DNA of 64,000 bases from Candidatus Omnitrophota bacterium (GCA_016214265.1 JACROU010000037.1:3859-67858), one strand, 5' to 3'; shown: positions 1 through 15,628, numbered from the stretch's first letter. A program made the numbers and translations. The notes: a model not told the origin generated them from the letters alone.

Positions 1-1
1 G

Positions 2-1531: not shown

Positions 1532-1968
1532 TTTGTGATTTATGTCATCATGAATTTAACGAGTCCGAAGCTCGAGGCGCATGTTCCGGCTGTGGCACGC
1601 AAAAAAGCTGTGGCGGCGTTCGCTGTCCCCGCTGTTACTACGAGATGGTTTCAGCGCCCGGATGGATTTCTGGAATTGCGAGATTTTTTAATCGAAAATC
1701 TGGGCGTGAGGCTGTGTGTGAAGAGAAGGAATTTTCAGAAAAATCCGGAGTTTCTCTGAATGAATTTGAAGTAAACCGATCCGCCGAAATCGTTGATTTG
1801 CGGACAGTGGACAATCTTATTCTCAGAAAGATTATTGCGATGGATGCGCTTCCCGGGGCAAAGATTACGCTTGTCCAAAAATTCCCCTCTTTGGTTTTCC
1901 GAATCAACGAGAGTTCATTCTCGATCGATAAAGAGCTGGCTTCTGTTATTTGCGTCAAACCGATTTAG
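1528..1968 (+). CDS. FeoA-domain protein with N-terminal Cys4 zinc-ribbon
   Basis: ATG at 1528 overlaps the feoB stop. N-terminus has CDLC...CSGCG...CPRC. C-terminus (IVDLRTVDNLILRKIIAMDALPGAKITLVQKFPSLVFRINESSFSIDKELASVI) matches the FeoA SH3-like fold. The longer 1390 ORF is an in-frame upstream extension overlapping feoB. Confidence 0.6.
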   Translation: MICDLCHHEFNESEARGACSGCGTQKSCGGVRCPRCYYEMVSAPGWISGIARFFNRKSGREAVCEEKEFSEKSGVSLNEFEVNRSAEIVDLRTVDNLILRKIIAMDALPGAKITLVQKFPSLVFRINESSFSIDKELASVICVKPI

Positions 1969-2843
1969 TCTCGAGCCAGCATGTTAATGAAAAGTTGAGC
2001 GGGGTGTGTCGGCACTCTTTCGTTTAAGGTGATAATGCCGATCGGTCGTGAAAGCTGCAAATCCGAAATCCGAATAGATGTTATCAGTCCCTGAGCCACT
2101 TCTTTTTCAACGGCTTTGCGGGGCACAATCGATATTCCTAATCCTACTTCCACAGCTTTTTTTATCGTGTCAATATTATCGTTGGTCATTCGAATGAAAA
2201 CTTTTACTTCCTTGCTATTTAGCGCTTCGTTGATGGCCTCCCTTGTGGGAATTCCTTCGTCAAAAGTGATGAAGTTTTCGTTATTAATTTCCTGCAATTT
2301 GATGCTGCGTTTTTTTGCCAGGTGGTGTTTGGGAGGGGCAATTAAAATAAGGTTATCTTTGCCGGCAGGGGTGATCTTGATTCTCGGTCGGTTCTTAGGA
2401 TAAGCAACAATGCCGAAATCAATTTTTTCTTGAAGAATAAGATCATAGATCAAGTCCGATCTACTGTATTGAAGATGAATGTAGATATCCGGATAGGCGC
2501 GAATAAATTTTTTCAGATTGGCAGCCAGCTCGTAGATGCCGATGCTATAGACTGTGGCAATCTTGACATTTCCCTTTAGTGTTTTGGTTTTGTTGGAGAG
2601 GTGGGATTTTAAATTTCCGATCCGGGTTAAGAGGTCTTCGACGTAAGGAAGCAAAAATTCCCCTTCCTTGGTCAGACTTACTTTTCGCGGCGCGCGGTCA
2701 AACAGCCGGCATCCCAGCAGCTCCTCAAGATTTTTAATGTGCGAGCTGACGGACGGCTGTGTCAGAAAATTCAATTTTCCGACTTTGGCAAAATTTTTCT
2801 CGTAGGCAATATCTTTGAATATTTTCAAGCTGAGGGTGTTCAT
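1965..2843 (-). CDS. LysR-family transcriptional regulator
   Basis: N-terminal HTH (LKIFKDIAYEKNFAKVGKLNFLTQPSVSSHIKNLEELLGCRLFDR) plus LysR substrate-binding domain. Divergent from the cytochrome cluster. Confidence 0.85.
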   Translation of the reverse strand: MNTLSLKIFKDIAYEKNFAKVGKLNFLTQPSVSSHIKNLEELLGCRLFDRAPRKVSLTKEGEFLLPYVEDLLTRIGNLKSHLSNKTKTLKGNVKIATVYSIGIYELAANLKKFIRAYPDIYIHLQYSRSDLIYDLILQEKIDFGIVAYPKNRPRIKITPAGKDNLILIAPPKHHLAKKRSIKLQEINNENFITFDEGIPTREAINEALNSKEVKVFIRMTNDNIDTIKKAVEVGLGISIVPRKAVEKEVAQGLITSIRISDLQLSRPIGIITLNERVPTHPAQLFINMLARD

Positions 2844-3036
2844 AGATAGAAATAATTTATCATTGCAATATTAAAAATCAATTATTTTTATCGATTGTAT
2901 CGTGCGATTATAATTTCCAGTGACACACGTTCATTCATTAAGCTATAATGATTTTCAGTCGTAACTATAAAACATCATTCAGTTTGAGCGGGTTTGTTAT
3001 TTTCTTCCTTTTCTCTTCAATAATTTCGGAGTTCGT
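2844..3036. promoter_or_regulatory. Divergent AT-rich promoter region between the LysR gene and the cytochrome cluster; contains dyad ATCAAT-N7-ATCGAT (T-N11-A-like) around 2876-2897
   Basis: AT-rich 190-bp intergenic with inverted repeat. Typical LysR autoregulatory/target architecture. Confidence 0.3.
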
Positions 3037-3828
3037 ATGGCAAAACAATTTTGTTGGGTGAAAGCGATTGGAGCATTTGCCTCAGTCGTTATTTTTTTGT
3101 TCGTAGTATCCGGCCAAGCGATGGGCGCCGAGCAGAAGAAAGAGAAATCTTACCCCTTCGAAGGTTTCGTTGGCGTTAAGGGATCAAAATATGTTGGTCA
3201 GGAAACCTGTGAAATGTGTCACGAAAAAGAAGCCCGCGAGTTTAAACTTTCCACCCATTCAAGACTCAATATCGAACATGGTCAGACAAAGGCGCAAGGA
3301 TGCGAAATGTGCCACGGCCCCGGAAGCATTCACGTGGATGCGGGCGGAGGCAAAGGAAAAGGGATTATCAACCCAAGAAAAAATCCTGAAGTTTGTTTTT
3401 CCTGCCATATGGATAAGAAAATGGAATTTCGCCTGCCGTTTCATCATCCCGTTTTGGAGGGTAAAATGGGGTGCGCGGACTGTCATTCCGCGCACGGTGC
3501 CGAAGTCAAGCCTTGGTCTGCGACGACGCTTAGCGGTATGAATGAAGCCTGCTATAAATGCCATAAGATTCAACGCGGTCCTTTTGTGTGGGAGCATGAG
3601 GCTCTTCGTGAAGGCTGCACCGCTTGTCATAAGGTTCATGGTTCGGTTAATGACAAGATGCTGCTTATTCGCGATAGCAATTTGTGCTTAAGATGTCATA
3701 CCCAAATGGATTTTCCAGTGATTGGAAGATCTAACCATGCGGCCCGAATGCCTCAAGGAACTTGCTTTAGTGCAGGGTGTCATACAGCGGTTCATGGATC
3801 GAATTTTGATGATCATCTGCGATATTAG
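3037..3828 (+). CDS. Octaheme c-type cytochrome, secreted (signal peptide)
   Basis: Seven CxxCH (CEMCH, CEMCH, CFSCH, CADCH, CYKCH, CTACH, CLRCH) plus one CxxxCH (CFSAGCH) in 263 aa. N-terminal signal/anchor. Confidence 0.85.
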   Translation: MAKQFCWVKAIGAFASVVIFLFVVSGQAMGAEQKKEKSYPFEGFVGVKGSKYVGQETCEMCHEKEAREFKLSTHSRLNIEHGQTKAQGCEMCHGPGSIHVDAGGGKGKGIINPRKNPEVCFSCHMDKKMEFRLPFHHPVLEGKMGCADCHSAHGAEVKPWSATTLSGMNEACYKCHKIQRGPFVWEHEALREGCTACHKVHGSVNDKMLLIRDSNLCLRCHTQMDFPVIGRSNHAARMPQGTCFSAGCHTAVHGSNFDDHLRY

Positions 3829-3837
3829 AGGGTTACG

Positions 3838-5919
3838 ATGAAAACTACTTTACGCATAGTGCTGGCAGAAATTTTAATCGGTGGATTGTTACTCGTACCT
3901 GGAACCGTTTCTGCGGGAGAGACCGGAACGGAAACAGCGCCTGTTACCTTTGCGCCAGTTCCAGTGCAATATGCTTTTGTGGATGGCGATATGGCCAAGT
4001 TCCAAAACCATAAATGGATGAAGGGTGATTATAACGCAGGGGCGGATAATTCTACGGCGGAGTATAAACTACCCAAAGGCGTAACGTTGTCGATGGAAGG
4101 AAGTGGTCTCGTCCCTCAAAACGATTTTGGTGCGAAAACATCTATTACCAAAGAAAACTTGGGATTTGTCAATTTTGATTTTAAACAATTCCGCCGGTAT
4201 TACGACACGACGGGCGGCGTTTACGACCGATTTGCGACGCTCAGGCACAATGAATTAGACAAAGGTCTTCACATGGATATCGGTCATTTGGGAGTGGATA
4301 CCGGAATTACTATCAAAAATTGGCCTCACTTGGGTTTCGAATACGATCGGGATTACCGGCTTGGCGCCAAATCGCGTCTTTCGTGGGGCGGTGTTACCGA
4401 AGGGGCTATTCTCCGCTACATTTTTCCTTCCTATCAGGAGATCAATCAAAGCGTGGATACTTTTGCTATCAAAGCGGATCACACCATCGGTGGATATAAA
4501 CTAAAAGCAGATCAACGATGGGAACTATTCCGGGCGGATACTTCGCGATGGGAGCAGTGGATGGCAACGACCGGAGTGGCTGCGGATAATAAAAGGCGCC
4601 TGCAGCATCAAGAACCCAGTGCTGATCTGATGACCACAACGGTTGGAGCTGAGCGGTGGTTCAAGAAAGACAAAGTGTTTGTGTCTTCCGGGTATCGTTA
4701 TGCTCAAATGAAAAATAAAGAAATCGAATCCATATTTGAATTTGATGCCGCGGGGAGGCTTTTCAATAACGCCAATGCCAAAAGTGCCCGTAATTCTATT
4801 GCTCACAATAATATGGAGGATAACAGCTGGGTTGGAAATGCTATGTGGACTCCCTGGCATTCTTTGAGTTTGATTGCCAAATTGAAAGGCGACGTGTACC
4901 GAAATTTGGGATTTTCCACAAATCCCATGGATACAAATGCCGGTGTTCCGAATGGAGGAATCGATACTACGGAGATCAGCAATCTCAGCAATAAGATTGG
5001 AAGCGTTGCCGAATCGGTATCCGTGCGTTTTACCGGAATTCCCCATACAGCGCTTTACTCAGAAATGGAATTGCAGGAAATTGGGAATCGACGATATGAA
5101 AATCGTTTGAGCGTTGCTGGTCAGGCGGCTACTAGTGCCAATGAAAACTATACCAATTTGGTAAACATAAATAGTTATCGCCAGATGTGGACTATTGGCG
5201 GAAATTTTGCGCCTTGGTATTTTGTAAATACCACGGCAGATGTTCGCATTCGCCGGGAAAACGATGATTACGATTACATCAAAAACTCACCGCCGACGGG
5301 CGGCGAGCTTTTTCGCGCGTTCTTTGATTCATTAAAAATCAACACTAACGAATTCAAAACCCGGACTACCTTAAGATTGGTGAAGTGGCTGCAGCCAGCC
5401 TTCCGTTATCAGTTTCAAGAAAAGGATTTTTATGCGTTGCCGTATCATGAGCCGGTTTATGTGACGACGCGTACGATATCAAATACTTATACATATGACC
5501 TGATGTATCAGCCATTGGCAGATTTAATGACAATGATTTCATTTTCCAGGCAAACAATTAAAACTGTAACGCCTGCTCATAATTCAGCCCGAACAATGGG
5601 AGTTCCTCCAACTTATAACACCAATGTAAACATGTGGATGTTCAGTGCGGATTACGCCTTAAGGCCCGATTTGATTCTTACGGGTAGCCTTGATTTTTCA
5701 AGAGCGCCTAATTTCAATGATTATTCCACAATCGGTTTACCGCTTGGTGTTGACTACAATCAGATAGATTTAAATTTGGGCGTGCGCTGGGCTTTGAATA
5801 AACGGATTACGTTGGAACCGAAGTACTCCTATTACCATTACAATCCGAATCAAAACGTGGAGTATGGTAAATATGATGCTCATGTAATTTCGCTTGAAAT
5901 GCTCCTACCCTGGGGTTGA
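3838..5919 (+). CDS. Predicted outer-membrane beta-barrel protein (porin-like), candidate partner of the preceding multiheme cytochrome
   Basis: Signal peptide (LLVPGTVSAGE). 693 aa with no Cys, rich in Y/T/N/G and alternating amphipathic beta-strand patterns. Starts 10 nt after the cytochrome gene. Confidence 0.5.
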   Translation: MKTTLRIVLAEILIGGLLLVPGTVSAGETGTETAPVTFAPVPVQYAFVDGDMAKFQNHKWMKGDYNAGADNSTAEYKLPKGVTLSMEGSGLVPQNDFGAKTSITKENLGFVNFDFKQFRRYYDTTGGVYDRFATLRHNELDKGLHMDIGHLGVDTGITIKNWPHLGFEYDRDYRLGAKSRLSWGGVTEGAILRYIFPSYQEINQSVDTFAIKADHTIGGYKLKADQRWELFRADTSRWEQWMATTGVAADNKRRLQHQEPSADLMTTTVGAERWFKKDKVFVSSGYRYAQMKNKEIESIFEFDAAGRLFNNANAKSARNSIAHNNMEDNSWVGNAMWTPWHSLSLIAKLKGDVYRNLGFSTNPMDTNAGVPNGGIDTTEISNLSNKIGSVAESVSVRFTGIPHTALYSEMELQEIGNRRYENRLSVAGQAATSANENYTNLVNINSYRQMWTIGGNFAPWYFVNTTADVRIRRENDDYDYIKNSPPTGGELFRAFFDSLKINTNEFKTRTTLRLVKWLQPAFRYQFQEKDFYALPYHEPVYVTTRTISNTYTYDLMYQPLADLMTMISFSRQTIKTVTPAHNSARTMGVPPTYNTNVNMWMFSADYALRPDLILTGSLDFSRAPNFNDYSTIGLPLGVDYNQIDLNLGVRWALNKRITLEPKYSYYHYNPNQNVEYGKYDAHVISLEMLLPWG

Positions 5920-5931
5920 TAATCACACCCC

Positions 5932-7725
5932 ATGAAGCCGAAATCGCAGGGCGTAAGTCCTTACTATATCTTGAGAAGCTTTCTTTTTTCCTTCTTTAAT
6001 TTCTTTGCCTCTTTAAAGCTCGCCGTGTTTCTTCTTGTCGTGTTGGGAGTGACTTTAGCTGCCGGTACTTTTATTGAATCTGCTTCAGGAACTAAAGCCG
6101 CGCAGCAGATGGTTTACCATACCGCTGCGTTTAGTTTGCTTCTTGGCGTGTTGGCGATGAATCTGGCTTTCGCCGCTTTGGCACGGCTACCCTGGCAGAA
6201 AAAGCATGTGGGATTTGTGATGACTCATGCTGGGATTATCATGATTATCTTTGGATCGTGGATGACCACTCGATTCGCGATTGACGGCCAGCTGGCGTTA
6301 GCGGAAGGGGAAAGAGGAAACCAGATTTCCGTTGATGTCCCGCTCCTCCAAATATTTAATTCCCAAACCAAGCAAAGCATTGAAGTTCCTTTTAAACTTC
6401 CACCACGGCAATGGGAGGGTAATAAACCATTTATTTTGCATGACTTTGATGATGTTGCGGTTAATCTTTTAGCTTTTTTCCCGCATTCCAAACCGGTTGA
6501 GAAAATTGTTCCCAAGGCGGGCGGTTCTTCTGCCGTAGAGTTTGATATTTTTAATGAAAATATGCGTATGGGCGGCAGGCTTCTGGAAGAACAAGGGAAA
6601 GACAGTATGGATTTGGGGCCGGCAGTGGTTCGGTTTTCTTCCCAGGAAATTCCTTTGCCTACGAAAAAATCTGCTTCTTCCGACTCTTTGGGTGATTTGA
6701 TATTCAATTATCAGGGCAAACAAAGCAGGGTGTCCGTATCGAAGGCGCTCACCAAAGAAGTTTCTATTCCCAACACACCCTTCAAAATAAAAATTAATCG
6801 TTATTTGTCTCACGCGATTGTTGAAAATAATCAGCTGGTTGACCGGGGTGAAGCGGCCGTGAATCCGGCCTGTGAATTTGTGATTCTGGGAAAGAAAACG
6901 GAAGAAAAACATACCGCCTTCGCTTTTTTTCCGGATTTTCCGACGCTTCACGGTCGCGCGCCATCACAGACCGGATTGAAAATTCATTTTGAGGCTTCCG
7001 GGTTGGAACAGGGCGCTTCTGCAAACGAACTTCGGATTATCAAGAATGCTTCCGGAAAACTTTTCTATCAGACAAAAACTCAACAAACTGTGATTCCGCC
7101 GGTCCCGGTGGAAGTGGGGAAGGAATACGCTACAGGCTGGATGCATCTGAAATTTCTGGTTAAAACATTTTTTCCTGAAGCGGAACTTAAGTCTTATTTT
7201 GAACCACTGCCTCTTTCACCCCAGGAGAAAAATCCACGGCCGGTAGTTTTGATGGGATTTCAGAAAAACGGCCAGGAAGCGAAACTTTGGCTTCAGCGCG
7301 GAGATCATCAATTTGTTTTTTCCGAAAGTGCACCGCTTCATGTCATTTACGGCGAGAAAAATATTCCTCTTGGATTTGATATTGAGCTTAAAAAATTTAT
7401 GATCGATTATTATCCCGGTTCAGAGCGGCCCGCTGCGTTTAAAAGCGCTGTCAAGTTAATCGACCCCTCAAAAGGCGTTGACCGAGAGGTTGAGATCAGC
7501 ATGAATAAGCCGCTTTCTTACCGTGGATTCAAGGTTTTTCAGTCGGGATATCAGTTGAGCGAAGGCCGGCCCAAAGTGTCCATTTTCTCCGTGGGGCGTG
7601 ACCCGGGCATTCCGGTAAAATATGCGGGCAGCATTGTCATGATTCTTGGCGTTTTATTTATGTTTTATTTGAAAAGATTTTCAAGCAGCAAGCCTCTCTA
7701 TTCAAACGAAAGTGAGAAAAAATGA
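5932..7725 (+). CDS. ccsB: Cytochrome c biogenesis protein CcsB/ResB (System II)
   Basis: N-terminal TM helices, LKLAVFLL...IESASGT..AAQQMVYHT motif, large periplasmic domain, C-terminal TM. Confidence 0.8.
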   Translation: MKPKSQGVSPYYILRSFLFSFFNFFASLKLAVFLLVVLGVTLAAGTFIESASGTKAAQQMVYHTAAFSLLLGVLAMNLAFAALARLPWQKKHVGFVMTHAGIIMIIFGSWMTTRFAIDGQLALAEGERGNQISVDVPLLQIFNSQTKQSIEVPFKLPPRQWEGNKPFILHDFDDVAVNLLAFFPHSKPVEKIVPKAGGSSAVEFDIFNENMRMGGRLLEEQGKDSMDLGPAVVRFSSQEIPLPTKKSASSDSLGDLIFNYQGKQSRVSVSKALTKEVSIPNTPFKIKINRYLSHAIVENNQLVDRGEAAVNPACEFVILGKKTEEKHTAFAFFPDFPTLHGRAPSQTGLKIHFEASGLEQGASANELRIIKNASGKLFYQTKTQQTVIPPVPVEVGKEYATGWMHLKFLVKTFFPEAELKSYFEPLPLSPQEKNPRPVVLMGFQKNGQEAKLWLQRGDHQFVFSESAPLHVIYGEKNIPLGFDIELKKFMIDYYPGSERPAAFKSAVKLIDPSKGVDREVEISMNKPLSYRGFKVFQSGYQLSEGRPKVSIFSVGRDPGIPVKYAGSIVMILGVLFMFYLKRFSSSKPLYSNESEKK

Positions 7726-9341
7726 AAATTTTTCGAGCTCTTTTGCTATTGATTCCTGTTTGTTTCTATTCTGCTCCTGCGATTTGCGGGTCTCACAGCA
7801 ATTTTGATATTAAGTCGCTCGAAAAGATGGCGGTGCAAAGCGGGGGGCGAATCAAGCCTTTCAGCAGTTTCTCAAAAGAAGTGGTTTTGTATGTAACAGG
7901 AAAAGAACGTTTCGCAGGTAAAGATGCCAACACCCTGCTTTTGGAATGGATCGCAAAACCTGAGCAGTGGGAAGCGCAGCCTCTGATTCCGGTTTCCAAT
8001 CAGGCATTAAGGACTTTTTTGGGAATTCCTGCTGAAACGAAAAGAGTCAGCCCGCATTTTCTTTCTTCGAGCCGTGTTTTTCTCGACAGCGTGGCGCAAA
8101 TCGATGCCAAACAATCGCAAGGGGAAGTGTTAAGCACGGTTGATAAAGCGGAGATTGAGCTTTATCAAAAAATGAGTCTGTTTTATGCCTCGTGCGAAGG
8201 AAAAAACTGGTCTGTTATTCCTAATCCATCTTCCCCTCATGACAAGTGGCTCTCCATCGATATGATTAAAACAGATCAGAGAATTGGCAGTCTGGCTGTT
8301 CCGCTCAATACGATGCTGGAAAGTTACCGCTCAAATGATCCGGTGAAATTCAAACAGGCGAGCGAAGAGTTTATCAATCGGTTGGGATTACAGAATTCTT
8401 TTACGCTGGAAATTCAATACAATCACTTAAGGCCTTTCGGATGGGCTTGGCATTTGTATTTGCTGGGATTTTTGATTTTTCTGATAAATTTTGTTTTAAA
8501 GAAATCGTTTTTATCATGGATTGGGGTGGGCAGCGTTATTTTGGGATTTCTGCTGCACACTTATGGATTTGTTCTGCGGTGCATTATTTCGGGCAGGCCT
8601 CCTGTTAGCAACATGTACGAGTCTGTTATCTGGGTTTCGTGGGCGGCGGTTTTGTTTGCGGTTATCCTTTTCTTCGTTTACCGCTCAACGTATGTCACTC
8701 TGGCAGCGTCGGCGATTGCTGCAGTCGGCTTAATTCTGGCAGATAGTTTGCCGGCGGTTTTGGATCCTTCGATCTCGCCTCTGGAACCGGTTTTAAGAAA
8801 TAATTTTTGGCTGACAATTCATGTTCTGACGATCACGTTAAGTTACGGCGCTTTTGCTCTGGCTCTAGCTATTGCACATATTTCTCTCCTCATGCATGTG
8901 TTTCAGACGAAAAATGAAAATCTTCTTCGCATTATCACCGAATTTCTTTACCGGGCGTTGCAAATCGGTGTTGTTCTTTTGGCGGCGGGAACTATTTTGG
9001 GTGGTGTTTGGGCAAATTACTCTTGGGGCCGGTTTTGGGGCTGGGATCCCAAAGAAACTTGGGCCTTAATCGCTCTTCTCGGATATTTGGCTATTCTTCA
9101 TTGCCGTTATGTCGGCTGGATCGGTCCGTTTGGTCTTGCTGTTGGCGCCTCAGTTGCATTTCTGGGCGTTCTGATGGCATGGTACGGTGTCAACTTTGTT
9201 CTTGCCGCGGGACTTCACAGTTATGGTTTTGCCGGCGGCGGACTTCCTTATGTCGGCGCTTTCGTCATCGCCGATTTATTGCTGGTGGCCTTACTCTCTT
9301 TTGTTTATTGGAAAAAGACGCAAATCAAAACTTCTCACTAA
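7722..9341 (+). CDS. ccsA: Cytochrome c biogenesis protein CcsA/ResC with ~240-aa N-terminal periplasmic extension
   Basis: Trp-rich heme-handling motif WGRFWGWDPKETWAL and multi-TM CcsA core. Start overlaps the ccsB stop. Confidence 0.8.
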   Translation: MKIFRALLLLIPVCFYSAPAICGSHSNFDIKSLEKMAVQSGGRIKPFSSFSKEVVLYVTGKERFAGKDANTLLLEWIAKPEQWEAQPLIPVSNQALRTFLGIPAETKRVSPHFLSSSRVFLDSVAQIDAKQSQGEVLSTVDKAEIELYQKMSLFYASCEGKNWSVIPNPSSPHDKWLSIDMIKTDQRIGSLAVPLNTMLESYRSNDPVKFKQASEEFINRLGLQNSFTLEIQYNHLRPFGWAWHLYLLGFLIFLINFVLKKSFLSWIGVGSVILGFLLHTYGFVLRCIISGRPPVSNMYESVIWVSWAAVLFAVILFFVYRSTYVTLAASAIAAVGLILADSLPAVLDPSISPLEPVLRNNFWLTIHVLTITLSYGAFALALAIAHISLLMHVFQTKNENLLRIITEFLYRALQIGVVLLAAGTILGGVWANYSWGRFWGWDPKETWALIALLGYLAILHCRYVGWIGPFGLAVGASVAFLGVLMAWYGVNFVLAAGLHSYGFAGGGLPYVGAFVIADLLLVALLSFVYWKKTQIKTSH

Positions 9342-9363
9342 AATCCAAGGTGATGTTTTGCCT

Positions 9364-10269
9364 ATGAGATGTATTGCTCCAATATCGGCACGAATTAGCG
9401 TTGTTGCCGCTTTTTTGCTTCTGCTTTTCGTCGGCGTACAAAAATTTGTGTGGGCGGTAGAAGCGCCTAAAAATAATTCGTGCGTCACGTGTCACATGGA
9501 TATTTGGGAAGAAACGAAAGACAGCATTCACTCTAGTGAGGGGATTACCTGCAACAATTGTCACGGCGGTGATCCGGCCAAAAAAGAAAAAGAACTCGCC
9601 AAAGCACCCGCCACGGGTTATATCGGAATTCCTGACAAAAAACAGATCGTGAATATGTGCGGTACCTGTCACGCCAACGTTGAGGTGATGAATTTTTATG
9701 GTATTCGTACCGATCAGCTGGCCCGGTATAAAACCAGTATGCATGGAAAAAAACTATTAATTGACGGTGATACACACGTTGCTGCTTGTGCGGATTGCCA
9801 TGGCTATCACAATATTCTTGGTATTGGCGACCCGCAAAGTTCCGTTTATCCTACAAATGTTCCAAAGACATGCAATAAGTGTCATGGCAATGAGAAATTG
9901 ATGGGGCGTTACCATCTTCCGTCAGACATCTTCAAACAATATGAAAATAGTGCCCACGGCGTTGCTTTACTCGTGAAAAACGATCTTTCTTCGGCAAACT
10001 GTGTTAGCTGTCACGGAAGTCACGGAGCCATGCCTCCTGGAGTGAAAGAAGTCAGTGACACTTGCGGCAAATGTCACATTAACGAAAAAAAATTCTTTTT
10101 GACCAGCGAACACGCCAAGTTGGCTGAAGGCAGCAAGTTTTCAGAATGTATATCCTGCCATGGTTTTCATGGCATTCAACACCCCACAATTCAATTGTTC
10201 AGTACGGCTTGCTCGAAATGTCATAATGTGAAAAGCTTGGCGGCGCAAAGAGCGCTTTCAATGCAATAA
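9364..10269 (+). CDS. Nonaheme c-type cytochrome, N-terminally membrane-anchored
   Basis: Nine CxxCH motifs (CVTCH, CNNCH, CGTCH, CADCH, CNKCH, CVSCH, CGKCH, CISCH, CSKCH). Likely ATG at 9364 (MRCIAPISARISVVAAFLLLLFVG). The 9187 ORF start is an upstream extension overlapping ccsA. Confidence 0.8.
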   Translation: MRCIAPISARISVVAAFLLLLFVGVQKFVWAVEAPKNNSCVTCHMDIWEETKDSIHSSEGITCNNCHGGDPAKKEKELAKAPATGYIGIPDKKQIVNMCGTCHANVEVMNFYGIRTDQLARYKTSMHGKKLLIDGDTHVAACADCHGYHNILGIGDPQSSVYPTNVPKTCNKCHGNEKLMGRYHLPSDIFKQYENSAHGVALLVKNDLSSANCVSCHGSHGAMPPGVKEVSDTCGKCHINEKKFFLTSEHAKLAEGSKFSECISCHGFHGIQHPTIQLFSTACSKCHNVKSLAAQRALSMQ

Positions 10270-10272
10270 CTG

Positions 10273-10638
10273 TTGTTAAAATCCCAAACGGAAGTTAGCG
10301 AGACAAAAGCCGTAGTGAAAGCAGCGGCGAATCAGGGTCTTTTTGTTGATGAAGAAAAAGCCGCTTTTGATGAAGCCAATACCAGTTTGATTGAGATGGG
10401 AATAACTCAGCATTCGCTTTCTGTCGGTGAGTTGTCAAAGCTTTCAAATAAAGTTGAAGCTACAACCGAACAAATCCGAAAAGGTATAAATCATAAGTAT
10501 CAAGGTTTGAAGTGGCGGAAAATTGCGCTTATTATTGTGTGGATTTTTGTCCTATTGATGGTTGTGGCGTTGTGGACTAAATATAAACGTTTAAAGTTTA
10601 TCAGGGATGAGAGAAAGAAAAAACACGACGATGAGTGA
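10273..10638 (+). CDS. Small hypothetical protein with C-terminal TM helix
   Basis: ORF has a non-ATG start, a single hydrophobic C-terminal segment (IALIIVWIFVLLMVVALW), and sits between the cytochrome and Rieske genes. Start uncertain. Confidence 0.3.
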   Translation: MLKSQTEVSETKAVVKAAANQGLFVDEEKAAFDEANTSLIEMGITQHSLSVGELSKLSNKVEATTEQIRKGINHKYQGLKWRKIALIIVWIFVLLMVVALWTKYKRLKFIRDERKKKHDDE

Positions 10639-11101
10639 TTCAGGTAAAGATCAAAATCTGGAGAAGCCTTTGTACGAAAAGTCTTTGTCGAGACGCGATT
10701 TTATCAGCTGGATTATCAAGGGCGGATTATTTATCACGTTTTTGAGCATGCTATTGCCCGCATTGGAATATATTTGGCCGGTGACTCGCCGTGGTCCAGT
10801 GGGCGGGGCTAATGATGTTGGTCGCGCCGATGACATTCCCGTTGGCAGCGCAAAAAAAGTAGATGTGTCCGGGACTCCGCTCATTTTAATTCACACACCG
10901 CAAGGATTTAATGCCTTCTCGGCGATTTGCACTCACCTTGGTTGTCTGGTGGGGTGGGATTCTCAGAAGCAATTAATTGCCTGCCCCTGTCATGCGGGAT
11001 TATTTGATACAACAGGCAGAGTGGTGGCGGGCCCGCCGCCAAGACCTTTGGCTTCTTATCCGGTGAATGTTGTGGATGGAAAAATTTTTATTAAACTCTA
11101 A
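10607..11101 (+). CDS. petA: Rieske [2Fe-2S] iron-sulfur subunit with twin-arginine signal (likely true start at 10631)
   Basis: SRRDFI Tat motif plus TM. Rieske boxes CTHLGC and CPCHAG. Confidence 0.85.
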   Translation: MRERKNTTMSDSGKDQNLEKPLYEKSLSRRDFISWIIKGGLFITFLSMLLPALEYIWPVTRRGPVGGANDVGRADDIPVGSAKKVDVSGTPLILIHTPQGFNAFSAICTHLGCLVGWDSQKQLIACPCHAGLFDTTGRVVAGPPPRPLASYPVNVVDGKIFIKL

Positions 11102-11124
11102 AACTCATTTTCAAAAAAATCCTC

Positions 11125-12294
11125 ATGATCAAACAATTTATTCAAAAGTGGTTTGAAGAGCGGTTTGACGTAGAGCAAATCAAACAGCCGCTAAAAAAGC
11201 AGATTGAGAAACCGCTTCCCCCGAACGTGGGTTGGCTTCACACACTGGGCAGTATGTCGTTGATCCTTTTTGTCAGTCAAGTCCTCACAGGGATTTTGCT
11301 GCTAATTTACTATCGTCCAACGGTCAACGAGGCGTTTGAAAGTGTGAAGTTCATCATGTCCAAAGCCTACATGGGATGGCTGTACCGGCAAATTCATGCC
11401 TGGGGCTCCAATCTCATGATCTTGATCGTATTTCTGCATATGCTGCGGACTTATATCATGGGATCTTTCAAGAAACCACGCGAGTTAACCTGGGTTTTTG
11501 GCGTTCTGCTTTTCTTTATAACACTTACTTTTGGTTTTACCGGATATCTTCTTCCCTGGAATCAGTTGTCATATTGGGCAACAACGGTGGGGACGGAACT
11601 GGCTGGGGGGGTTCCCTGGATTGGCTTGTTTATTAAAACCTTGCTGAGGGGAGGCCAGTCGGTGGGCGGTGAGACGCTTTCCCGTTTCTTTGTTGTGCAT
11701 GTCATCATATTGCCTTGGGCGCTTTTTTTCCTGATCATCATTCACATTTTTCTTGTTCGCTTTCAGGGAATTTCAACCATGGAGCCGGTTGGTGAGGAAA
11801 AGAAAGTTAAGCCCGATGAAGGAATTCCATTCTATCCCCATCATGCATTAAAAGAAGGCGTTGTGTTTTATCTTTTAATGGCCGTCCTGATTACGCTATC
11901 GATTTTAGTTCCTTTTGAGTTGGGAGAAAAAGCTGATCCCCTCCAAACGCCGGCTGGTATCAAACCCGAATGGTATTTTTTGCCCATGTATCAGGTGCTG
12001 AAATATTTCCCCAAAATGATAGGTATCTTTGTCGTTGGTTTGGCGCCGCTATTTTTGCTGTTCTGGGCTTTTTTGGATAACAGTAAACAACGCAATCCTC
12101 TTAAAAGACCCTTTTCGATAACGTTTTGCATTCTTGTCCTTATATCTCTGGTTGTGTTCGGAGTGATGGGGGCGTATTCAGAAACTAAAGTAACTTTATT
12201 TGGCAAAACTTACGATGTGGATGTGTACGGCGTTCCTCATCTGGCCGCCGCAAATATTATCGATCAAATTAATCCCGAGAAATCAACGACATGA
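11125..12294 (+). CDS. petB: Cytochrome b (fused b6/subunit IV-like, 389 aa)
   Basis: Canonical cytochrome b motifs (YMGWLYRQIHAWGSNLMILIVFLHMLRTY; LPWNQLSYWATTV). Multi-TM. Confidence 0.85.
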   Translation: MIKQFIQKWFEERFDVEQIKQPLKKQIEKPLPPNVGWLHTLGSMSLILFVSQVLTGILLLIYYRPTVNEAFESVKFIMSKAYMGWLYRQIHAWGSNLMILIVFLHMLRTYIMGSFKKPRELTWVFGVLLFFITLTFGFTGYLLPWNQLSYWATTVGTELAGGVPWIGLFIKTLLRGGQSVGGETLSRFFVVHVIILPWALFFLIIIHIFLVRFQGISTMEPVGEEKKVKPDEGIPFYPHHALKEGVVFYLLMAVLITLSILVPFELGEKADPLQTPAGIKPEWYFLPMYQVLKYFPKMIGIFVVGLAPLFLLFWAFLDNSKQRNPLKRPFSITFCILVLISLVVFGVMGAYSETKVTLFGKTYDVDVYGVPHLAAANIIDQINPEKSTT

Positions 12295-13790
12295 GTGAAG
12301 AAAAGAAACGAAATATTTATTTTCGAAACTGGATGAGTGTTATCGGCGGAATTCTCTCCGTAATTTTGTTTGCCGTTATTTTATTTCTGTTCGTTTTAGA
12401 CTTCCTTGATAAAGGGTTGAACCCTTATTTGGGAATTTTTACCTACGTTGTTGTGCCGGTTTTTTTGGTGATCAGTCTTTTGATGATTCCCATCGGCGCC
12501 TGGCGCGAGCGTGCACGATTTAAAAAACTTGGCCATGTTCAGCAATTTCCCCAGATTGATTTTAATAATCCCACACACCAGAAGATAGCATTTGCGGCTT
12601 GGGGCGTAGTTACGCTGTTTCTTCTTTTTTCAATGGTGGGTGCGTACCGGGCTTACGAGTTTTCGGAGTCTGTCACTTTTTGCGGGCGCACCTGTCATGG
12701 CGTGATGGGACCGGAATATATTGCGTACAAAAATTCCCCGCACGCGCATGTAGCCTGTGTGGAATGCCACATTGGGCCTGGGATTGACTGGTATATCCGT
12801 TCAAAACCTTCCGGAGCCCGTCAGGCTTATTTAACTCTTACAAACCGTTTTAATCGTCCTATTCCAACACCGATAAAGACGCTTCGCCCTGCTCGCGAAA
12901 CTTGTGAGCATTGCCATTGGCCCGAGCAGTTTTACGGGGATAAAGAAGTAAATCATAAATACTTTCTGCCTGATGAAACGAACACAGAATGGAAGGCTCG
13001 ATTACTTGTCCATGTGGGCGGTGCCAAGCCTCGTTATGGGCAGGGTGAAGGCATTCACTGGCATATGAAAGTTAATAATCAGGTTTATTACATCGCCACG
13101 GATGAGAAGAAAGAAAACATTCCATGGGTGCGGCAGATCAATCCTGATGGTAAAGAAGAGATATTTGTTGAAGAAAAATCCGGATACAGCGCTTCGAATC
13201 CGCCAAAAGGTGAAATCAAATTAATGGATTGTATGGATTGTCACAATCGCCCAAGCCATCACTTCAAAGCGCCATCGGAGTCCGTAAATGAAGCGATGGG
13301 CTTTGGACAGATTGACAGTTCACTGCCTTATATAAAACGTGAGGCGGTGAAAGCCTTGGTGGGGAATTACAAATCGAACTCAGAAGCAAAAGCCGAAATT
13401 CGCAAACGTCTCGAGACTTTTTACCGGGAAAAATACCCCGCAATTTGGGAGTCGAAAGGTAAAGAATTGCAGAGCAGTATTGACCGGGTGATTAATATTT
13501 ATAATGTCAACTTTTTCCCAGAAATGAAAACGTCATGGAAGGTGCATCCCAACAATATTGGGCATTTCATCTCTACGGGATGTTTTCGCTGCCACGATGA
13601 CAAACACAAAACTGCGGAAGGTAAAGTGATCCGGAAAGATTGTGCTATGTGTCATGCGATTATTGAGCAGGGCAAACCGGAGTTACTGGAAACTGCTGTG
13701 GCCGGGGTTGAATTCAAGCATCCCGAGGATATTGGCGAGGAATGGAAAGAGACGAAATGTTCTGATTGCCATACTGGCGAACTGGCTTAG
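12291..13790 (+). CDS. Membrane-anchored multiheme c-type cytochrome (about 7 hemes), c-type subunit of the Rieske/cyt b complex
   Basis: Two N-terminal TM helices. CxxCH x6 (CVECH, CEHCH, CMDCH, CFRCH, CAMCH, CSDCH) plus CGRTCH. Start overlaps the cyt b stop. Confidence 0.8.
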   Translation: MSEEKKRNIYFRNWMSVIGGILSVILFAVILFLFVLDFLDKGLNPYLGIFTYVVVPVFLVISLLMIPIGAWRERARFKKLGHVQQFPQIDFNNPTHQKIAFAAWGVVTLFLLFSMVGAYRAYEFSESVTFCGRTCHGVMGPEYIAYKNSPHAHVACVECHIGPGIDWYIRSKPSGARQAYLTLTNRFNRPIPTPIKTLRPARETCEHCHWPEQFYGDKEVNHKYFLPDETNTEWKARLLVHVGGAKPRYGQGEGIHWHMKVNNQVYYIATDEKKENIPWVRQINPDGKEEIFVEEKSGYSASNPPKGEIKLMDCMDCHNRPSHHFKAPSESVNEAMGFGQIDSSLPYIKREAVKALVGNYKSNSEAKAEIRKRLETFYREKYPAIWESKGKELQSSIDRVINIYNVNFFPEMKTSWKVHPNNIGHFISTGCFRCHDDKHKTAEGKVIRKDCAMCHAIIEQGKPELLETAVAGVEFKHPEDIGEEWKETKCSDCHTGELA

Positions 13791-13798
13791 CGCAGTTA

Positions 13799-13814
13799 TG
13801 TGACCTTCGTCACA
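13799..13814. promoter_or_regulatory. CRP-family-like binding site TGTGACCTTCGTCACA (TGTGA-N6-TCACA)
   Basis: Perfect CRP consensus half-sites. Extended 24-mer matches the site at 53012 at 21/24 positions, differing only within the spacer (shared ATGTGA plus CGTCACAGTTTT). About 150 bp upstream of the tetraheme cytochrome gene. Confidence 0.4.
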
Positions 13815-13967
13815 GTTTTAAACCGGGTTCTCTCGCTATAATTCGCTCTTGTCTTTGGAATTAGAGAACATTCCCATCGAATAGATTATTCGGTCGCACG
13901 TCTTATTAATTACAAAAGTTTTCGTTTTTCTATCAAAGTAGGCGAAGCGCAAACAAGGAGGATAGCG

Positions 13968-14522
13968 ATGAAGTCAGGTTATTTGTTGCCACAATTATTA
14001 AGGAGCTTTCTGGTTTTAACTGTTTTTGCTTTTTTGGCCACCCCCGTAGCTTTTGCCGCTGATCATGAATATGTCGGGGCGGCAAAATGCGGAATTTGCC
14101 ATAAGAAACCAGAGCAGGGCGAACAATATCGTATTTGGCAGGAATCAAAACATGCCAAGGCTTTTGAAGCACTGGGAACTCCCGAGGCAAAAGAAGTCGG
14201 CGCTAAACTGGGAATTGATGATCCTCAAAAGAGCGGAAAATGTTTGAAATGTCATTCCACGGCTTATGGACATACAGAACAAGTTGTTACGGATGCGATC
14301 CCGGTTGAAGAAGGCGTTTCTTGCGAAACATGCCATGGTGCCGGAAAAGATTATATGAAAAAGAGCGTCATGGAAGATGTTAACGCCGCGAAAGAAGCGG
14401 GATTAATTATTCCGGATGAGGCGACTTGCACAAAATGCCACAATTCGGAGAGCCCGACGTTCAAGCCGTTTGATTACAAAGAACGTTATGAGAAAATTAA
14501 ACATCCTAAACCCAATAAATAA
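13968..14522 (+). CDS. Periplasmic tetraheme c-type cytochrome
   Basis: Signal peptide. Four CxxCH (CGICH, CLKCH, CETCH, CTKCH). Strong RBS AAGGAGG upstream. Confidence 0.8.
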   Translation: MKSGYLLPQLLRSFLVLTVFAFLATPVAFAADHEYVGAAKCGICHKKPEQGEQYRIWQESKHAKAFEALGTPEAKEVGAKLGIDDPQKSGKCLKCHSTAYGHTEQVVTDAIPVEEGVSCETCHGAGKDYMKKSVMEDVNAAKEAGLIIPDEATCTKCHNSESPTFKPFDYKERYEKIKHPKPNK

Positions 14523-14704
14523 AATTTAACTAACGATACGTTTTCCTCCGTAAACGCCTCCTGGCGAAGAGTACAGAAATGAAAAGACTTCGTTTCTGCA
14601 AACTTCGTTCAGGGGGCGTTTTTATTTGTGATTGTGTAACCCGTGTCATTGGCACAAGTTGTAATCCTGGGGTACTATTTAGGTGGATTGAGTGGGAGGA
14701 TGGC

Positions 14705-15628
14705 ATGACAGAAGAAATGGAGTATTTTCAAAAATACCGTTCGCTCTATGAAGAGGCGGTGTTGCGGTATGTTTGTACCCGCTGCATTGACTTTGGAAAT
14801 GATGGCGTTTGTCATTCTGAAGATCCAAAAGGGTGTGCGGTATTCCGCTATTTGCCCGAATTGATAGCAATTGCAAGACGTATTCACGAACCCAGTATTG
14901 TCCCTTACGTTGATGCCGTGCGTCAAACTGTGTGTGTGCATTGCCGGGCCTTAACCCCTGAGGGGATGTGCCCATTGCGTGCCAAATTAGATTGCGGATT
15001 GGACCGCTACTTAATTCTTGTTATCGAAGCAATGGGGAAAGTGGATGCAATTTTGAAGAATGAGGAAAAAGACAGAGATAGATTGAGTAATGAATCGAAA
15101 AACATCACGTCACTTTTGATCCAACGTTGCCGGAGGGTGTTGGATAGAATTTTTTCATTGGATGAAATGCTGAGAGGATTTTGTTATTCAGGAGAGACGG
15201 CTTATCAGGAAAATTTAATACAAATGAATGAAGTTTCAAAATTTTTCTCAAGATTTTTCTCAAGAGAATGGAACAAGCATATGACGATTGAAAAGGAAAT
15301 ATTGTTTCCGTTTGCGATTGCACATTTGCCGCAAATAAGGCCGGCTATAGATTTTCTGGAATCAAAACACGCTGAATACAGAAAAAAACTTCAAGAATTA
15401 AGAACGCGATATGATGATTTTAAATGGGCAGTAGGTGATGAAGGGAGGAAAAAAGCGGTAGAAAAATTTCAAAATCTCGGAATTTCTTTGGCCAAGCTAT
15501 TCAATGAGTACATTGAGATTGAAGCAAAGAATGTGTATAAAGTGTTGGATCGCGAGCTTTCAGAAGATGACAAATTGGAGCTTATGAGAAAAATTTATCT
15601 CCGCAATGTCAGTCGTAGAGCGGCATAA
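14705..15628 (+). CDS. Cys-rich N-terminal domain / hemerythrin-like C-terminal domain protein
   Basis: GGAGG RBS before the ATG at 14705. N-terminus has CTRC...C...CVHC...C. C-terminus resembles a hemerythrin HHE cation-binding domain and is paralogous to 52196..52720 (shared EILFP[FY] and YKV[LI]DREL). Confidence 0.4.
   Translation: MTEEMEYFQKYRSLYEEAVLRYVCTRCIDFGNDGVCHSEDPKGCAVFRYLPELIAIARRIHEPSIVPYVDAVRQTVCVHCRALTPEGMCPLRAKLDCGLDRYLILVIEAMGKVDAILKNEEKDRDRLSNESKNITSLLIQRCRRVLDRIFSLDEMLRGFCYSGETAYQENLIQMNEVSKFFSRFFSREWNKHMTIEKEILFPFAIAHLPQIRPAIDFLESKHAEYRKKLQELRTRYDDFKWAVGDEGRKKAVEKFQNLGISLAKLFNEYIEIEAKNVYKVLDRELSEDDKLELMRKIYLRNVSRRAA

Follow-up and report, generated by a model that had tools for sequence, protein, structure and literature searches.

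The window analysed here is a 64-kb stretch of Candidatus Omnitrophota DNA. On its + strand it carries an operon (approximately 3037-14522) in which the genes for a nine-heme cytochrome, a Rieske protein, cytochrome b, a 499-aa cytochrome and a four-heme cytochrome follow one another in that order. The features of the operon are as follows.

3037..3828, + strand: MtrA-like periplasmic cytochrome, 263 aa, with signal peptide (seven CxxCH and one CxxxxCH)
3838..5919, + strand: MtrB-like outer-membrane beta-barrel, 693 aa, with signal peptide and no cysteine (AlphaFold and PDB comparison)
5932..7725, + strand: ResB/CcsB-type cytochrome c maturation protein, system II (Pfam ResB, 1.2e-22)
7722..9341, + strand: CcsA-type heme lyase/heme exporter, system II (Pfam Cytochrom_C_asm, 1.6e-30; NCBIfam CcsB, 156.9 bits)
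9364..10269, + strand: nine-heme cytochrome c, heme domain and signal peptide (nine CxxCH; TAA end at 10267-10269)
10273..10638, + strand: nine-heme cytochrome, C-terminal helical region and membrane anchor, a 121-aa frame (hydrophobic segment 78-105)
10607..11101, + strand: Rieske 2Fe-2S protein, 164 aa, with twin-arginine signal/anchor (Pfam Rieske, E=2.8e-15)
11125..12294, + strand: cytochrome b, 389 aa, b6-like part fused to subunit IV (Pfam and NCBIfam matches)
12291..13790, + strand: predicted ImcH-family heptaheme inner-membrane quinol dehydrogenase, 499 aa (three helices; one CX3CH and six CX2CH)
13968..14522, + strand: cytochrome c554-like periplasmic tetraheme cytochrome, 184 aa, with signal peptide (four CxxCH; Pfam Cytochrome_C554, 2.6e-18)

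The original prediction had described part of this arrangement, i.e., a Rieske/cytochrome b pair followed, with overlapping stop and start codons, by a 499-aa cytochrome with about seven heme sites, the whole flanked by a nine-heme cytochrome upstream and a four-heme cytochrome downstream. The coordinates and the ATGA overlap (cytochrome b stop TGA at 12292-12294, ATG of the 499-aa gene at 12291-12293) agree with that description, and a motif census gave seven heme sites, not fewer, in the 499-aa protein and nine and four CxxCH motifs in the flanking cytochromes. The arrangement had also been thought unusual; when about 165 related loci were compared, the same gene set was found again in at least seven phyla. 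Among promoter-like sequences in the region, the highest-scoring (11/12) is at 2920-2949, just 5' of the MtrA-like gene, and ferrous iron transporter genes lie just upstream of the operon. The whole 64-kb window encodes only four multiheme cytochromes, and neither an MtrC-like surface cytochrome nor a terminal oxidase was found within it.

The first two genes resemble the MtrAB, MtoAB and PioAB systems, in which the gene for a periplasmic multiheme cytochrome also lies directly 5' of the gene for a barrel of about 700 aa. The MtrA-like cytochrome matched Pfam Paired_CXXCH_1 (3.9e-24) and is also NrfB-like; it has eight hemes, whereas the known proteins have ten, and the pair differs further in having no MtrC-like partner in the window. 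The barrel protein had no match in NCBIfam or in Pfam, MtrB_PioB included. Its AlphaFold model (pLDDT 79.8) is an all-beta barrel that comes closest, among PDB structures, to MtrB (6r2q_B; E=3e-10, TM 0.60/0.64, 11% identity), compared with 0.33-0.44 for TonB-dependent receptors. MtrA-like homologues adjoin a barrel gene in loci L003, L056, L166 and L168, and in all four the pair recurs with the island. That the operon encodes these two proteins supports the earlier proposal of an electron acceptor other than a soluble monoheme cytochrome. In many loci, genes of the ImcH type or of the Rieske/cytochrome b module have a homologue of the c554-like cytochrome (34-70% identity) next to them, and in L168 the island adjoins the heme-copper oxidase assembly genes COX3, SCO1 and UbiA.

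The Rieske protein has both cluster-binding boxes, CTHLGC and CPCHAGLF, along with a twin-arginine motif (SRRDF) and a hydrophobic segment at 32-59, and it matched the b6f iron-sulfur subfamily of NCBIfam (76 bits); an alternative ATG is at 10631. Because cytochrome b matched both Cytochrome_B (2.7e-55) and Cytochrom_B_C (2.2e-19) in Pfam, b6 and subunit IV are fused. The heme ligands are His91/His105 and His192/His207, the second pair with b6-type spacing. The quinol-oxidation motif, PEWY, lies at 281, and seven hydrophobic segments (seven helices) are present. The four ligand histidines and PEWY are invariant in nine module homologues, and the protein shares 37-72% identity with the module's cytochromes b from other phyla. 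The N-terminal cysteine that binds heme ci in cytochrome b6 is absent, the sole cysteine among the 389 residues being Cys335. No monoheme cytochrome c1 or f accompanies the Rieske/cytochrome b core.

The heme sites of the 499-aa protein are six CxxCH motifs (at 156, 205, 314, 431, 451 and 490) and a CxxxCH (CGRTCH, at 131). All 14 cysteines of the protein lie within these motifs, so that they are not due to chance, and none of the seven varies among 50 homologues. Two transmembrane segments had been predicted; both hydropathy (segments 11-44, 42-73 and 98-119) and the AlphaFold model (helices 14-39, 45-79 and 94-125) gave three N-terminal helices, with the CX3CH directly after helix 3. The published architecture of the ImcH family is described in the same terms (PMC6295460); membership of the family was taken to require a length of about 495-519 aa and three transmembrane helices at the N terminus. 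In Geobacter sulfurreducens ImcH, GSU3259, the helices are at 13-35, 45-67 and 100-122 and the first heme cysteines at 132, 156, 205, 311, 428, 448 and 486 (PMC6295460, Table S3). The two proteins are thus alike in length (507 vs 499 aa), in their three N-terminal helices, in the CX3CH at helix 3 and in the six CX2CH motifs, which agree within 0-4 residues. The likeness extends to an NrfH-like region, a His/Gln heme-1 pocket and a conserved Glu and Lys. The heme-1/quinol pocket of ImcH comprises His137, Gln179, Glu127, Lys173 and Tyr188 (bioRxiv 10.1101/2023.05.03.539133), and the counterparts here, assigned by numbering and spacing and not by alignment to GSU3259, are His136, Gln178, Glu126, Lys172 and Phe187. 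In the 50 homologues these positions are H in 50, Q in 48, E in 43 (and D in six), K in 50, and Y in 40 or F in nine, so that the Phe in place of Tyr188 is a difference both from GSU3259 and from most relatives.

Relationship to the NapC/NirT/NrfH proteins was seen at several levels. Pfam PF03264 matched the 499-aa protein with 25.4 bits (cut-off 24.1), and residues 116-210 align with NrfH 2j7a_C (E=8e-5), heme 1 on heme 1, with a shared CX(2-3)CH..M motif and quinol-site lysine. The likeness covers a membrane helix and the first hemes; NrfH, CymA and NapC have four hemes and one helix, whereas seven hemes and three helices are found here. Given these differences and an NCBIfam NrfH score of 53.9 bits (residues 104-209) vs a cut-off of 134.2, the protein was rejected as NrfH proper. 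Pfam and NCBIfam searches found no nrfA near the gene. When the model was compared with the PDB by Foldseek, nothing matched significantly. The best 120 matches of two homology searches, and the 150 best representatives, included no Geobacter protein. The 499-aa sequence and MBI4970991.1, which belongs to a Candidatus Omnitrophica MAG, are 100% identical; ImcH homologues were already listed for that group (PMC6295460). By its architecture and the positions of its motifs, the predicted protein is probably a member of the known, NapC/NirT/NrfH-related ImcH family. It differs from known ImcH in that its gene overlaps that of cytochrome b and belongs to the same operon as an MtrAB-like pair; no mtrAB or mtoAB was reported next to imcH (PMC6295460).

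The most likely start of the nine-heme protein is 9364, just past the ccsA gene. The frames 9364-10269 and 10273-10638 are in the same reading frame, with a single in-frame TAA between them. Over its whole length, the heme domain in the window aligns with the first 300 residues of the unsplit nine-heme proteins of L003, L005 and L168 (442, 423 and 425 aa), and the heme domain and C-terminal region are fused in L003, L167 and L168. All 59 complete homologues (median 444 aa) are unsplit; nine hemes are present in 44, 11 in ten and five in four, and 55 of the 59 have the C-terminal hydrophobic segment, a c1-like anchor. Since TAA is the commonest ordinary stop in the window (23 of 46 long frames), the candidate nine-heme c subunit may, in this organism, be either non-functional or made as two polypeptides.

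Gene order was compared in 32 metagenome loci that encode the nearest relatives of the cytochrome b and that extend 2 kb or more to each side. A nine-heme homologue was directly adjacent to Rieske/cytochrome b in 27, lying 3' of cytochrome b in 21 and 5' of Rieske in six. An ImcH-type gene directly after cytochrome b was found in none of the 32 metagenome loci and none of 51 genome loci; that order was seen only in the window and in L167, an Omnitrophota relative with the window's gene order, an intact nine-heme gene and a 23-bp gap between cytochrome b and the ImcH-type gene. The ATGA overlap and the 23-bp gap are couplings of a kind frequent between subunits of one complex. Across 37 loci, the pairwise distances of cytochrome b correlated with those of Rieske (0.95) and of the nine-heme protein (0.78), and Rieske correlated with the nine-heme protein (0.79); for ImcH-type protein vs cytochrome b the correlation was 0.53 (Spearman 0.20). 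Gene order and co-variation thus point to the nine-heme cytochrome as the more likely c-type subunit of the Rieske/cytochrome b complex.

ImcH-type genes are often near the Rieske/cytochrome b module, in seven phyla and in variable positions, and CbcL-type genes are their neighbours more often. An ImcH-type gene was within 10 kb in 11 of 17 long-flank cytochrome b loci, an association stronger than expected for unrelated genes. Among 51 long-flank loci viewed from the ImcH side, a CbcL-type gene was present in 43 and cytochrome b in only 13, the other 38 having no cytochrome b in their flanks. The ImcH-type gene adjoins Rieske genes, with gaps of 0-180 bp, in eight loci; it is directly 5' of Rieske in L011, L015, L025 and others, 5' of the nine-heme gene in L088-L090, after c554 in L168 and after an NrfCD-like pair in L003. 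The original prediction had named, as grounds for abandoning it, that the 499-aa protein be of the NapC/NrfH family and unrelated to the bc complex. The family relationship is supported by PF03264 and by NrfH 2j7a_C, but unrelatedness to the bc module does not fit an ImcH-type gene near 11 of 17 such loci.

We think it probable that the operon is an extracellular electron transfer island with two separate, parallel quinol oxidases, i.e., a Rieske/cytochrome b module with a nine-heme c subunit and an independent ImcH-type enzyme, and with an MtrAB-like exit. Electrons would move between the menaquinone pool and the cell surface, crossing both membranes. The Rieske/cytochrome b module would run a Q cycle, conserving energy, and the Rieske cluster would pass electrons to the nine-heme cytochrome (9364-10638), held by its C-terminal anchor in a topology like that of cytochrome c1. 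In the 499-aa protein, helix 3 and the first heme would make up a menaquinol site like that of NrfH, at the periplasmic face, and the other six hemes a wire to a periplasmic partner. Purified Geobacter ImcH oxidises menaquinol without a Rieske/cytochrome b partner, with PpcA as electron acceptor and with proton release into the periplasm; by analogy, the 499-aa protein would oxidise menaquinol alone, without charge separation. Both quinol oxidases would reduce the c554-like tetraheme cytochrome (13968-14522), a candidate periplasmic carrier, which in turn would reduce the MtrA-like cytochrome inside the MtrB-like barrel (3037-5919). The ResB/CcsA pair would attach the 28 hemes. The ATGA overlap would then reflect co-expression from one operon and not a shared complex.

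The flow might instead be reversed, electrons from outside, e.g., from Fe(II) oxidation, entering through the MtrAB-like pair and the periplasmic cytochromes, with part of them driven uphill to quinone through Rieske/cytochrome b or the ImcH-type protein. In iron oxidisers, MtoAB and PioAB have a layout without an MtrC-like surface cytochrome, as does the window with its four multiheme cytochromes. The neighbouring ferrous iron transporter genes, and COX3, SCO1 and UbiA beside the island in L168, would also suit this direction, and relatives of CymA and CbcL/MtoC are known in reducers and oxidisers alike (PMC6295460). ImcH homologues, however, were reported only from Fe(III) reducers and were taken as quinol oxidases (PMC6295460). 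The hemes of ImcH are reported to titrate from -350 to -150 mV, which is low for electrons from Fe(II). Given also the absence of a terminal oxidase from the window, we regard reverse flow as unlikely.

Somewhat less likely still is that the 499-aa heptaheme protein is a membrane c-type subunit that replaces cytochrome c1 and receives the Rieske electrons, possibly since the nine-heme gene is broken. The original prediction had placed it there, and the overlap with cytochrome b, the same order in L167, the in-frame stop in the nine-heme frame, the eight loci with an ImcH-type gene beside Rieske and its proximity to cytochrome b in 11 of 17 loci would agree. But L167 has the same order and an intact nine-heme gene, and elsewhere the ImcH-type gene is variable in position, co-varies weakly with cytochrome b and in 38 of 51 loci has no Rieske/cytochrome b nearby. 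Further, the protein has kept a complete predicted NrfH/ImcH-type quinol site, and in Geobacter the family works without Rieske/cytochrome b. Its ImcH architecture, with the nine-heme protein as the constant neighbour of the module, argues against the c1 role. Equally doubtful is decay of the Rieske/cytochrome b module, with a nonsense codon inactivating the c subunit and only the ImcH-type route functional: a single in-frame TAA, a normal stop in the window, stands where relatives have a sense codon, and the 59 complete homologues are unsplit, but Rieske, cytochrome b and both nine-heme halves keep all motifs, including nine CxxCH and the anchor, one substitution or a MAG assembly error is at least as likely, and a soluble nine-heme protein with a separate anchor might still assemble.

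For the preferred reading, with two parallel quinol oxidases, c1-less Rieske/cytochrome b complexes among multiheme cytochromes offer the closest comparisons. In the anammox bacterium Kuenenia (Kuste4569-4574 and Kustd1480-1485), cytochrome b is likewise b6-like and a hexa- or octaheme cytochrome c replaces cytochrome f; an NAD(P) oxidoreductase and an HAO-like octaheme protein are present there, and Pfam and NCBIfam found neither here. The Geobacter bc cluster GSU2930-2937 (ExtKLMNOPQS), from a metal-respiring organism, includes the Rieske protein ExtO, cytochrome b ExtP, the membrane protein ExtQ and cytochromes with 10, 12, 5 and 2-4 hemes. It resembles the window in its c1-less core among multiheme cytochromes and in a many-heme cytochrome of about 430 aa encoded directly 5' of Rieske. 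The window cytochrome b scored 220.7 bits on the ExtP model, below the cut-off of 290, and is thus not the same orthologue. The window has no rhodanese, ExtI porin or selenoprotein, and the Geobacter cluster has no ImcH gene. The b6 and subunit IV parts, fused here, are split in Geobacter, and the cytochrome 5' of Rieske has nine hemes here vs ten there.

The cytochrome operon of the window and its flanks hold the features below; the remaining 50 kb of the window carries housekeeping genes.

50-1531: C-terminal part of FeoB; the window begins inside the gene
1390-1968: small frame with a putative FeoA-like C-terminus, identified by eye
1965-2843, minus strand: LysR-type regulator, divergent, between the Feo genes and the cytochrome operon
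3037-3828: cytochrome with a signal peptide and eight heme sites
3838-5919: 693-aa protein, cysteine-free, no Pfam or NCBIfam match; AlphaFold model a large beta-barrel (pLDDT 79.8)
5932-9341: ResB (597 aa) and CcsA (539 aa)
9364 (probable start) to TAA 10267-10269, plus strand: nine-heme frame, nine CxxCH
10273-10638, plus strand: 121-aa frame with a membrane anchor, in the same reading frame as the nine-heme frame
10607-11101, plus strand: Rieske protein, 164 aa, with boxes CTHLGC and CPCH and a twin-arginine motif (Pfam Rieske, 2.8e-15)
11125-12294, plus strand: cytochrome b, 389 aa (Pfam b/b6 N-terminal domain, 2.7e-55; C-terminal/subunit IV domain, 2.2e-19)
12291-13790, plus strand: c-type cytochrome, 499 aa, with six CxxCH, one CxxxCH and three N-terminal helices
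13968-14522: c554-like tetraheme protein with a signal peptide
14579-15628: 349-aa protein with a hemerythrin domain (Pfam, 5.8e-07) and 14 cysteines, mostly in the N-terminal half

The original prediction was that a Rieske/cytochrome b pair is followed, with overlapping stop and start, by a 499-aa multiheme cytochrome that replaces cytochrome c1. The three-gene order is borne out by the coordinates and by the ATGA common to the cytochrome b stop and the start of the 499-aa gene. The predicted heme counts of nine, seven and four agree with the nine CxxCH of the upstream cytochrome, the six CxxCH and one CxxxCH of the 499-aa protein, and the four CxxCH of the downstream cytochrome. Two membrane helices had been proposed for the 499-aa protein; hydropathy and AlphaFold give three, all N-terminal. 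As to the replacement itself, there is no c1 and the partners are multiheme, but the seven-heme protein appears to be of a known autonomous quinol dehydrogenase type.

That type is ImcH, the inner-membrane cytochrome that Geobacter requires to use extracellular acceptors of high potential. Zhong and Shi (PMC6295460) described ImcH homologues of 495-519 aa with three helices, six CX2CH and, beside the membrane domain, a CX3CH that is the atypical motif of these proteins; homologues from Candidatus Omnitrophica were among those reported. In the 499-aa protein all 14 cysteines sit in the seven heme motifs, at 131, 156, 205, 314, 431, 451 and 490, and the helices span residues ~14-39, 45-79 and 94-125. 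The motifs of GSU3259, the ImcH of Geobacter sulfurreducens, are at 132, 156, 205, 311, 428, 448 and 486, and its helices at 13-35, 45-67 and 100-122 (PMC6295460 Table S3). A preprint on purified ImcH (10.1101/2023.05.03.539133) gave His137 and Gln179 as heme-1 ligands and Glu127, Lys173 and Tyr188 as a conserved pocket; the matching residues here are His136, Gln178, Glu126, Lys172 and Phe187. Among 50 homologues His136 and Lys172 were conserved in all 50, Gln178 in 48 and Glu126 in 43 (Asp in six more), and position 187 was Tyr in 40 and Phe in nine. Judged by architecture, motif positions and pocket residues, the protein is probably an ImcH family member, with the full ImcH architecture. Residues 101-188 matched the Pfam NapC/NirT family barely over threshold, the NCBIfam NrfH model aligned to residues 104-209 far under its equivalog cut-off, and the sole solved structure matched by sequence was NrfH (2j7a_C), heme 1 falling on heme 1. 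Heme number, helix number and the sub-cut-off scores exclude NrfH proper, TorC, NapC and CymA.

Among the candidates scored, the family (~500 aa) comprised more than 7,900 clusters at 90% identity; at 50% identity there were 3,542 clusters at E<=0.001 and 741 at E<=1e-30, and species-representative genomes held at least 598 matching stretches. Its members came from Omnitrophota, Acidobacteriota, Ignavibacteriota, Bacteroidota, KSB1, Zixibacteria, Gemmatimonadota, Calditrichota and other phyla. Every one of the best 120 matches of the 499-aa protein was environmental, and MBI4970991.1, annotated 'cytochrome C' in a Candidatus Omnitrophica metagenome-assembled genome, is 100% identical to it. 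The accessions of the Omnitrophica relatives differ from those in PMC6295460 Table S3. The exact Geobacter motif spacing was absent among the proteins listed as relatives, and a search seeded with P0161, a Deltaproteobacteria-like relative of 613 aa, returned environmental 600-aa forms only. For the window itself the outcome is mainly a correction, the seven-heme family having already been noted in Omnitrophica.

In the window cytochrome b the b/b6 and subunit IV domains form a single chain (Pfam), with His91/His105, His192/His207, PEWY at 281 and seven hydrophobic segments. Because Cys335 is its sole cysteine, the protein cannot bind heme ci in the b6f fashion, and a b6f-type complex with heme ci was ruled out, the required cysteine being missing. 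The Ser and Tyr of Rieske box II hydrogen-bond to the cluster in bc1 and b6f complexes and raise the cluster potential in bc1. Box II of the window protein (residues 126-133) reads CPCHAGLF, with no Ser or Tyr of the bc1/b6f type, which suggests a low-potential cluster and would fit a lower-potential, menaquinol-based chain; in relatives outside the Omnitrophota-like group box II is CACHNGxY. The window cytochrome b scored 220.7 bits, under the cut-off of 290, against the model for ExtP, the cytochrome b of the Geobacter GSU2930-2937 cluster; on this score it is a relative of ExtP, though a different orthologue.

Gene neighbourhoods were surveyed around ImcH-type genes and around cytochrome b. 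On the ImcH side, 85 loci were collected (80 species-representative genomes and five contigs found via homologues), and counts were made on the 51 loci with at least 6 kb either side. A CbcL-type gene, whose product joins a b-type membrane domain to many c hemes, was present in 43 of the 51, cytochrome b in 13 and a c554-like gene in 14. The Rieske gene lay directly downstream of the ImcH-type gene in eight of these loci, and in none of the 51 was cytochrome b directly upstream of it. The gene directly preceding the ImcH-type gene is of CbcL type in most loci (L001, L005, L009-L085). Geobacter imcH (GSU3259) and cbcL (GSU0274) are presumably far apart, judging from their gene numbers. No CbcL-type gene occurs in the 64-kb window, where multiheme cytochromes total just four.

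On the cytochrome b side, the 80 metagenome loci nearest to the window protein were taken and counts were made on the 32 with at least 2 kb either side. A nine-heme homologue was directly adjacent to the Rieske/cytochrome b pair in 27 of the 32 loci, after cytochrome b in 21 and before Rieske in six, and an ImcH-type gene was directly after cytochrome b in 0 of 32. Somewhere in the flanks, an ImcH-type gene was found at 11 of the 17 cytochrome b loci with at least 6 kb either side. In the order seen most often, which occurs in Ignavibacteriota, Bacteroidota and Zixibacteria, a CbcL-type and then an ImcH-type gene come first, followed by Rieske, cytochrome b, a nine- or eleven-heme cytochrome and a c554-like gene. 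Among Omnitrophota, Rieske is preceded by the nine-heme gene and the position of the ImcH-type gene varies: after c554 (locus L168), after an NrfCD-like pair (L003) or before the nine-heme gene (L088-L090). Only the window and the related locus L167 have it directly after cytochrome b. In the Omnitrophica relative L003, a 251-aa multiheme cytochrome, a 4Fe-4S protein and an NrfD-type membrane protein (7232-9965) precede the ImcH-type gene; this trio would be a fourth kind of quinol-interacting module in that island.

Topology was assessed in 59 complete nine-heme homologues, with a median length of 444 aa, that adjoin Rieske/cytochrome b pairs. CxxCH motifs number nine in 44, eleven in 10 and five in four, and a hydrophobic segment lies within the last 70 residues of 55 of the 59. 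Like cytochrome c1, these proteins are predicted to have their heme domain in the periplasm and to be anchored at the C-terminus. Across 37 four-gene loci, with species history included and with the heme domain of a CbcL-type protein perhaps scored as the nine-heme protein in a few of them, pairwise distances correlated at 0.95 for cytochrome b and Rieske, 0.78 for cytochrome b and the nine-heme protein, 0.79 for Rieske and the nine-heme protein, and 0.53 (Spearman 0.20) for the ImcH-type protein and cytochrome b. Despite those caveats, the gap in co-variation between the nine-heme and ImcH-type proteins is nevertheless large. Because of neighbourhoods, topology and co-variation, and because Geobacter ImcH works alone, the nine-heme cytochrome is a better c-subunit candidate than the ImcH-type protein, which is best regarded as an additional quinol oxidase that works independently and is encoded in the same operon.

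All close relatives have one C-anchored nine-heme cytochrome of 411-473 aa; in the window the gene is split by a single in-frame TAA. When joined, the two window frames align over their full length with unsplit proteins of 442 aa (L003) and 423 aa (L005, another related locus), the TAA at 10267-10269 standing opposite a sense residue, and the gene is intact in L167 and L168. Recoding of this TAA is unlikely and was ruled out, because TAA serves as an ordinary stop in the window and is the one used most (23 of 46). Its presence here reflects either a genuine nonsense mutation or an error of assembly.

In the Geobacter GSU2930-2937 cluster (ExtKLMNOPQS) a Rieske/cytochrome b core likewise lies amid multiheme cytochromes, with a 10-heme cytochrome gene before Rieske; a proposal of 2010 made this bc-type cluster a possible site of proton translocation, and it has stayed uncharacterised since. 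Anammox bacteria have Rieske/cytochrome b cores with hexa- or octaheme cytochromes in the place of cytochrome f, and a multiheme acceptor for early bc complexes was proposed by Dibrova et al. 2013, as cited in PMC5317091. The Rieske/cytochrome b clade with the nine-heme C-anchored cytochrome shares islands with ImcH- and CbcL-type genes in at least seven phyla (Omnitrophota, Ignavibacteriota, Bacteroidota, Acidobacteriota, KSB1, Zixibacteria and Calditrichota), which suggests that extracellular electron transfer has a third route of quinol oxidation, one that is widespread and conserves energy. No description was found in the searchable literature of the clade with this subunit, of its seven-phylum spread or of its habitual co-location with ImcH- and CbcL-type genes. 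The interest lies mostly in this cross-phylum module rather than in the window's ImcH-type gene, and understanding of how electrons leave the quinone pool, and with what energy yield, in mineral- and electrode-respiring bacteria is still partial.

Against the PDB, the barrel model (3838-5919) best matched Shewanella MtrB, from the Mtr complex (E=3e-10, TM 0.60/0.64); TonB-dependent receptors reached 0.33-0.44. Seventeen relatives of the protein were found, the few source-named ones being Candidatus Omnitrophica, and it appears to represent an undescribed sequence family of MtrB-like barrels. The cytochrome-barrel pair also occurs in the islands of L003, L166, L168 and L056 (Planctomycetia); the L056 barrel copy, 31% identical, ends 45 bp before the ImcH-type gene. 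A survey covering only neighbouring c-type cytochrome genes gave no mtrAB-type genes beside imcH (PMC6295460).

In the mechanism that we propose, two modules would oxidise menaquinol, the Rieske/cytochrome b complex and the ImcH-type protein. The former would split the electrons, one passing via the Rieske cluster to the nine-heme subunit and the other returning to the pool through the two b hemes, with protons translocated; we infer this Q cycle because the mechanism is established for the superfamily and because PEWY and the histidine ligands are intact. The ImcH-type protein would oxidise menaquinol at heme 1 and send both electrons down its heme wire, with protons released to the periplasm and zero charge moved across the membrane, by analogy with Geobacter ImcH, which on its own oxidises menaquinol and reduces the periplasmic cytochrome PpcA, freeing protons into the periplasm, reportedly in an electroneutral manner. 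Both modules would reduce the periplasmic tetraheme cytochrome, which would then feed the MtrA-like cytochrome (3037-3828) inside the barrel. A live alternative is that the same parts serve electron uptake instead of export, and this reading is kept alive by the lack of an MtrC-like surface cytochrome and by the oxidase assembly genes that adjoin the island in L168. In that Omnitrophica relative (CG11), genes for a UbiA-type heme O synthase, COX3, SCO1/SenC and DUF420 occupy 1-3581, with the island directly after, and these heme-copper oxidase accessory genes leave open an aerobic or electron-uptake role. It is improbable that the recurrent co-location of ImcH-type genes with the Rieske/cytochrome b-nonaheme module reflects a physical or obligate functional pairing of an electroneutral quinol oxidase of ImcH type with a Q-cycle complex that conserves energy, with one shared heme wire or a supercomplex. 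Were such a pairing true, the proton yield per electron would be adjustable to the potential of the outside acceptor, and the arrangement would bear on energy conservation in the respiration of high-potential extracellular acceptors.

Homologues of the c554-like protein recur beside ImcH-type or Rieske/cytochrome b genes at many loci. The ResB and CcsA of the relatives' islands are far shorter than those of the window, at 338-368 and 261-265 aa, and among the islands only the Planctomycetia locus L056 has copies of >90% length. A promoter and terminator scan gave one good promoter-like site, the best of the region, just before 3037, and was otherwise uninformative, with counts near those of shuffled sequence. 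The ferrous iron transport (Feo) genes just upstream hint at a link between the cytochrome operon and iron. The cytochrome genes are directly followed by the gene for the 349-aa hemerythrin-domain protein, which may be a sensor of iron, oxygen or redox state; the Ignavibacteriota locus L011 encodes a weak relative of this protein at 6.8 kb from its ImcH-type gene.
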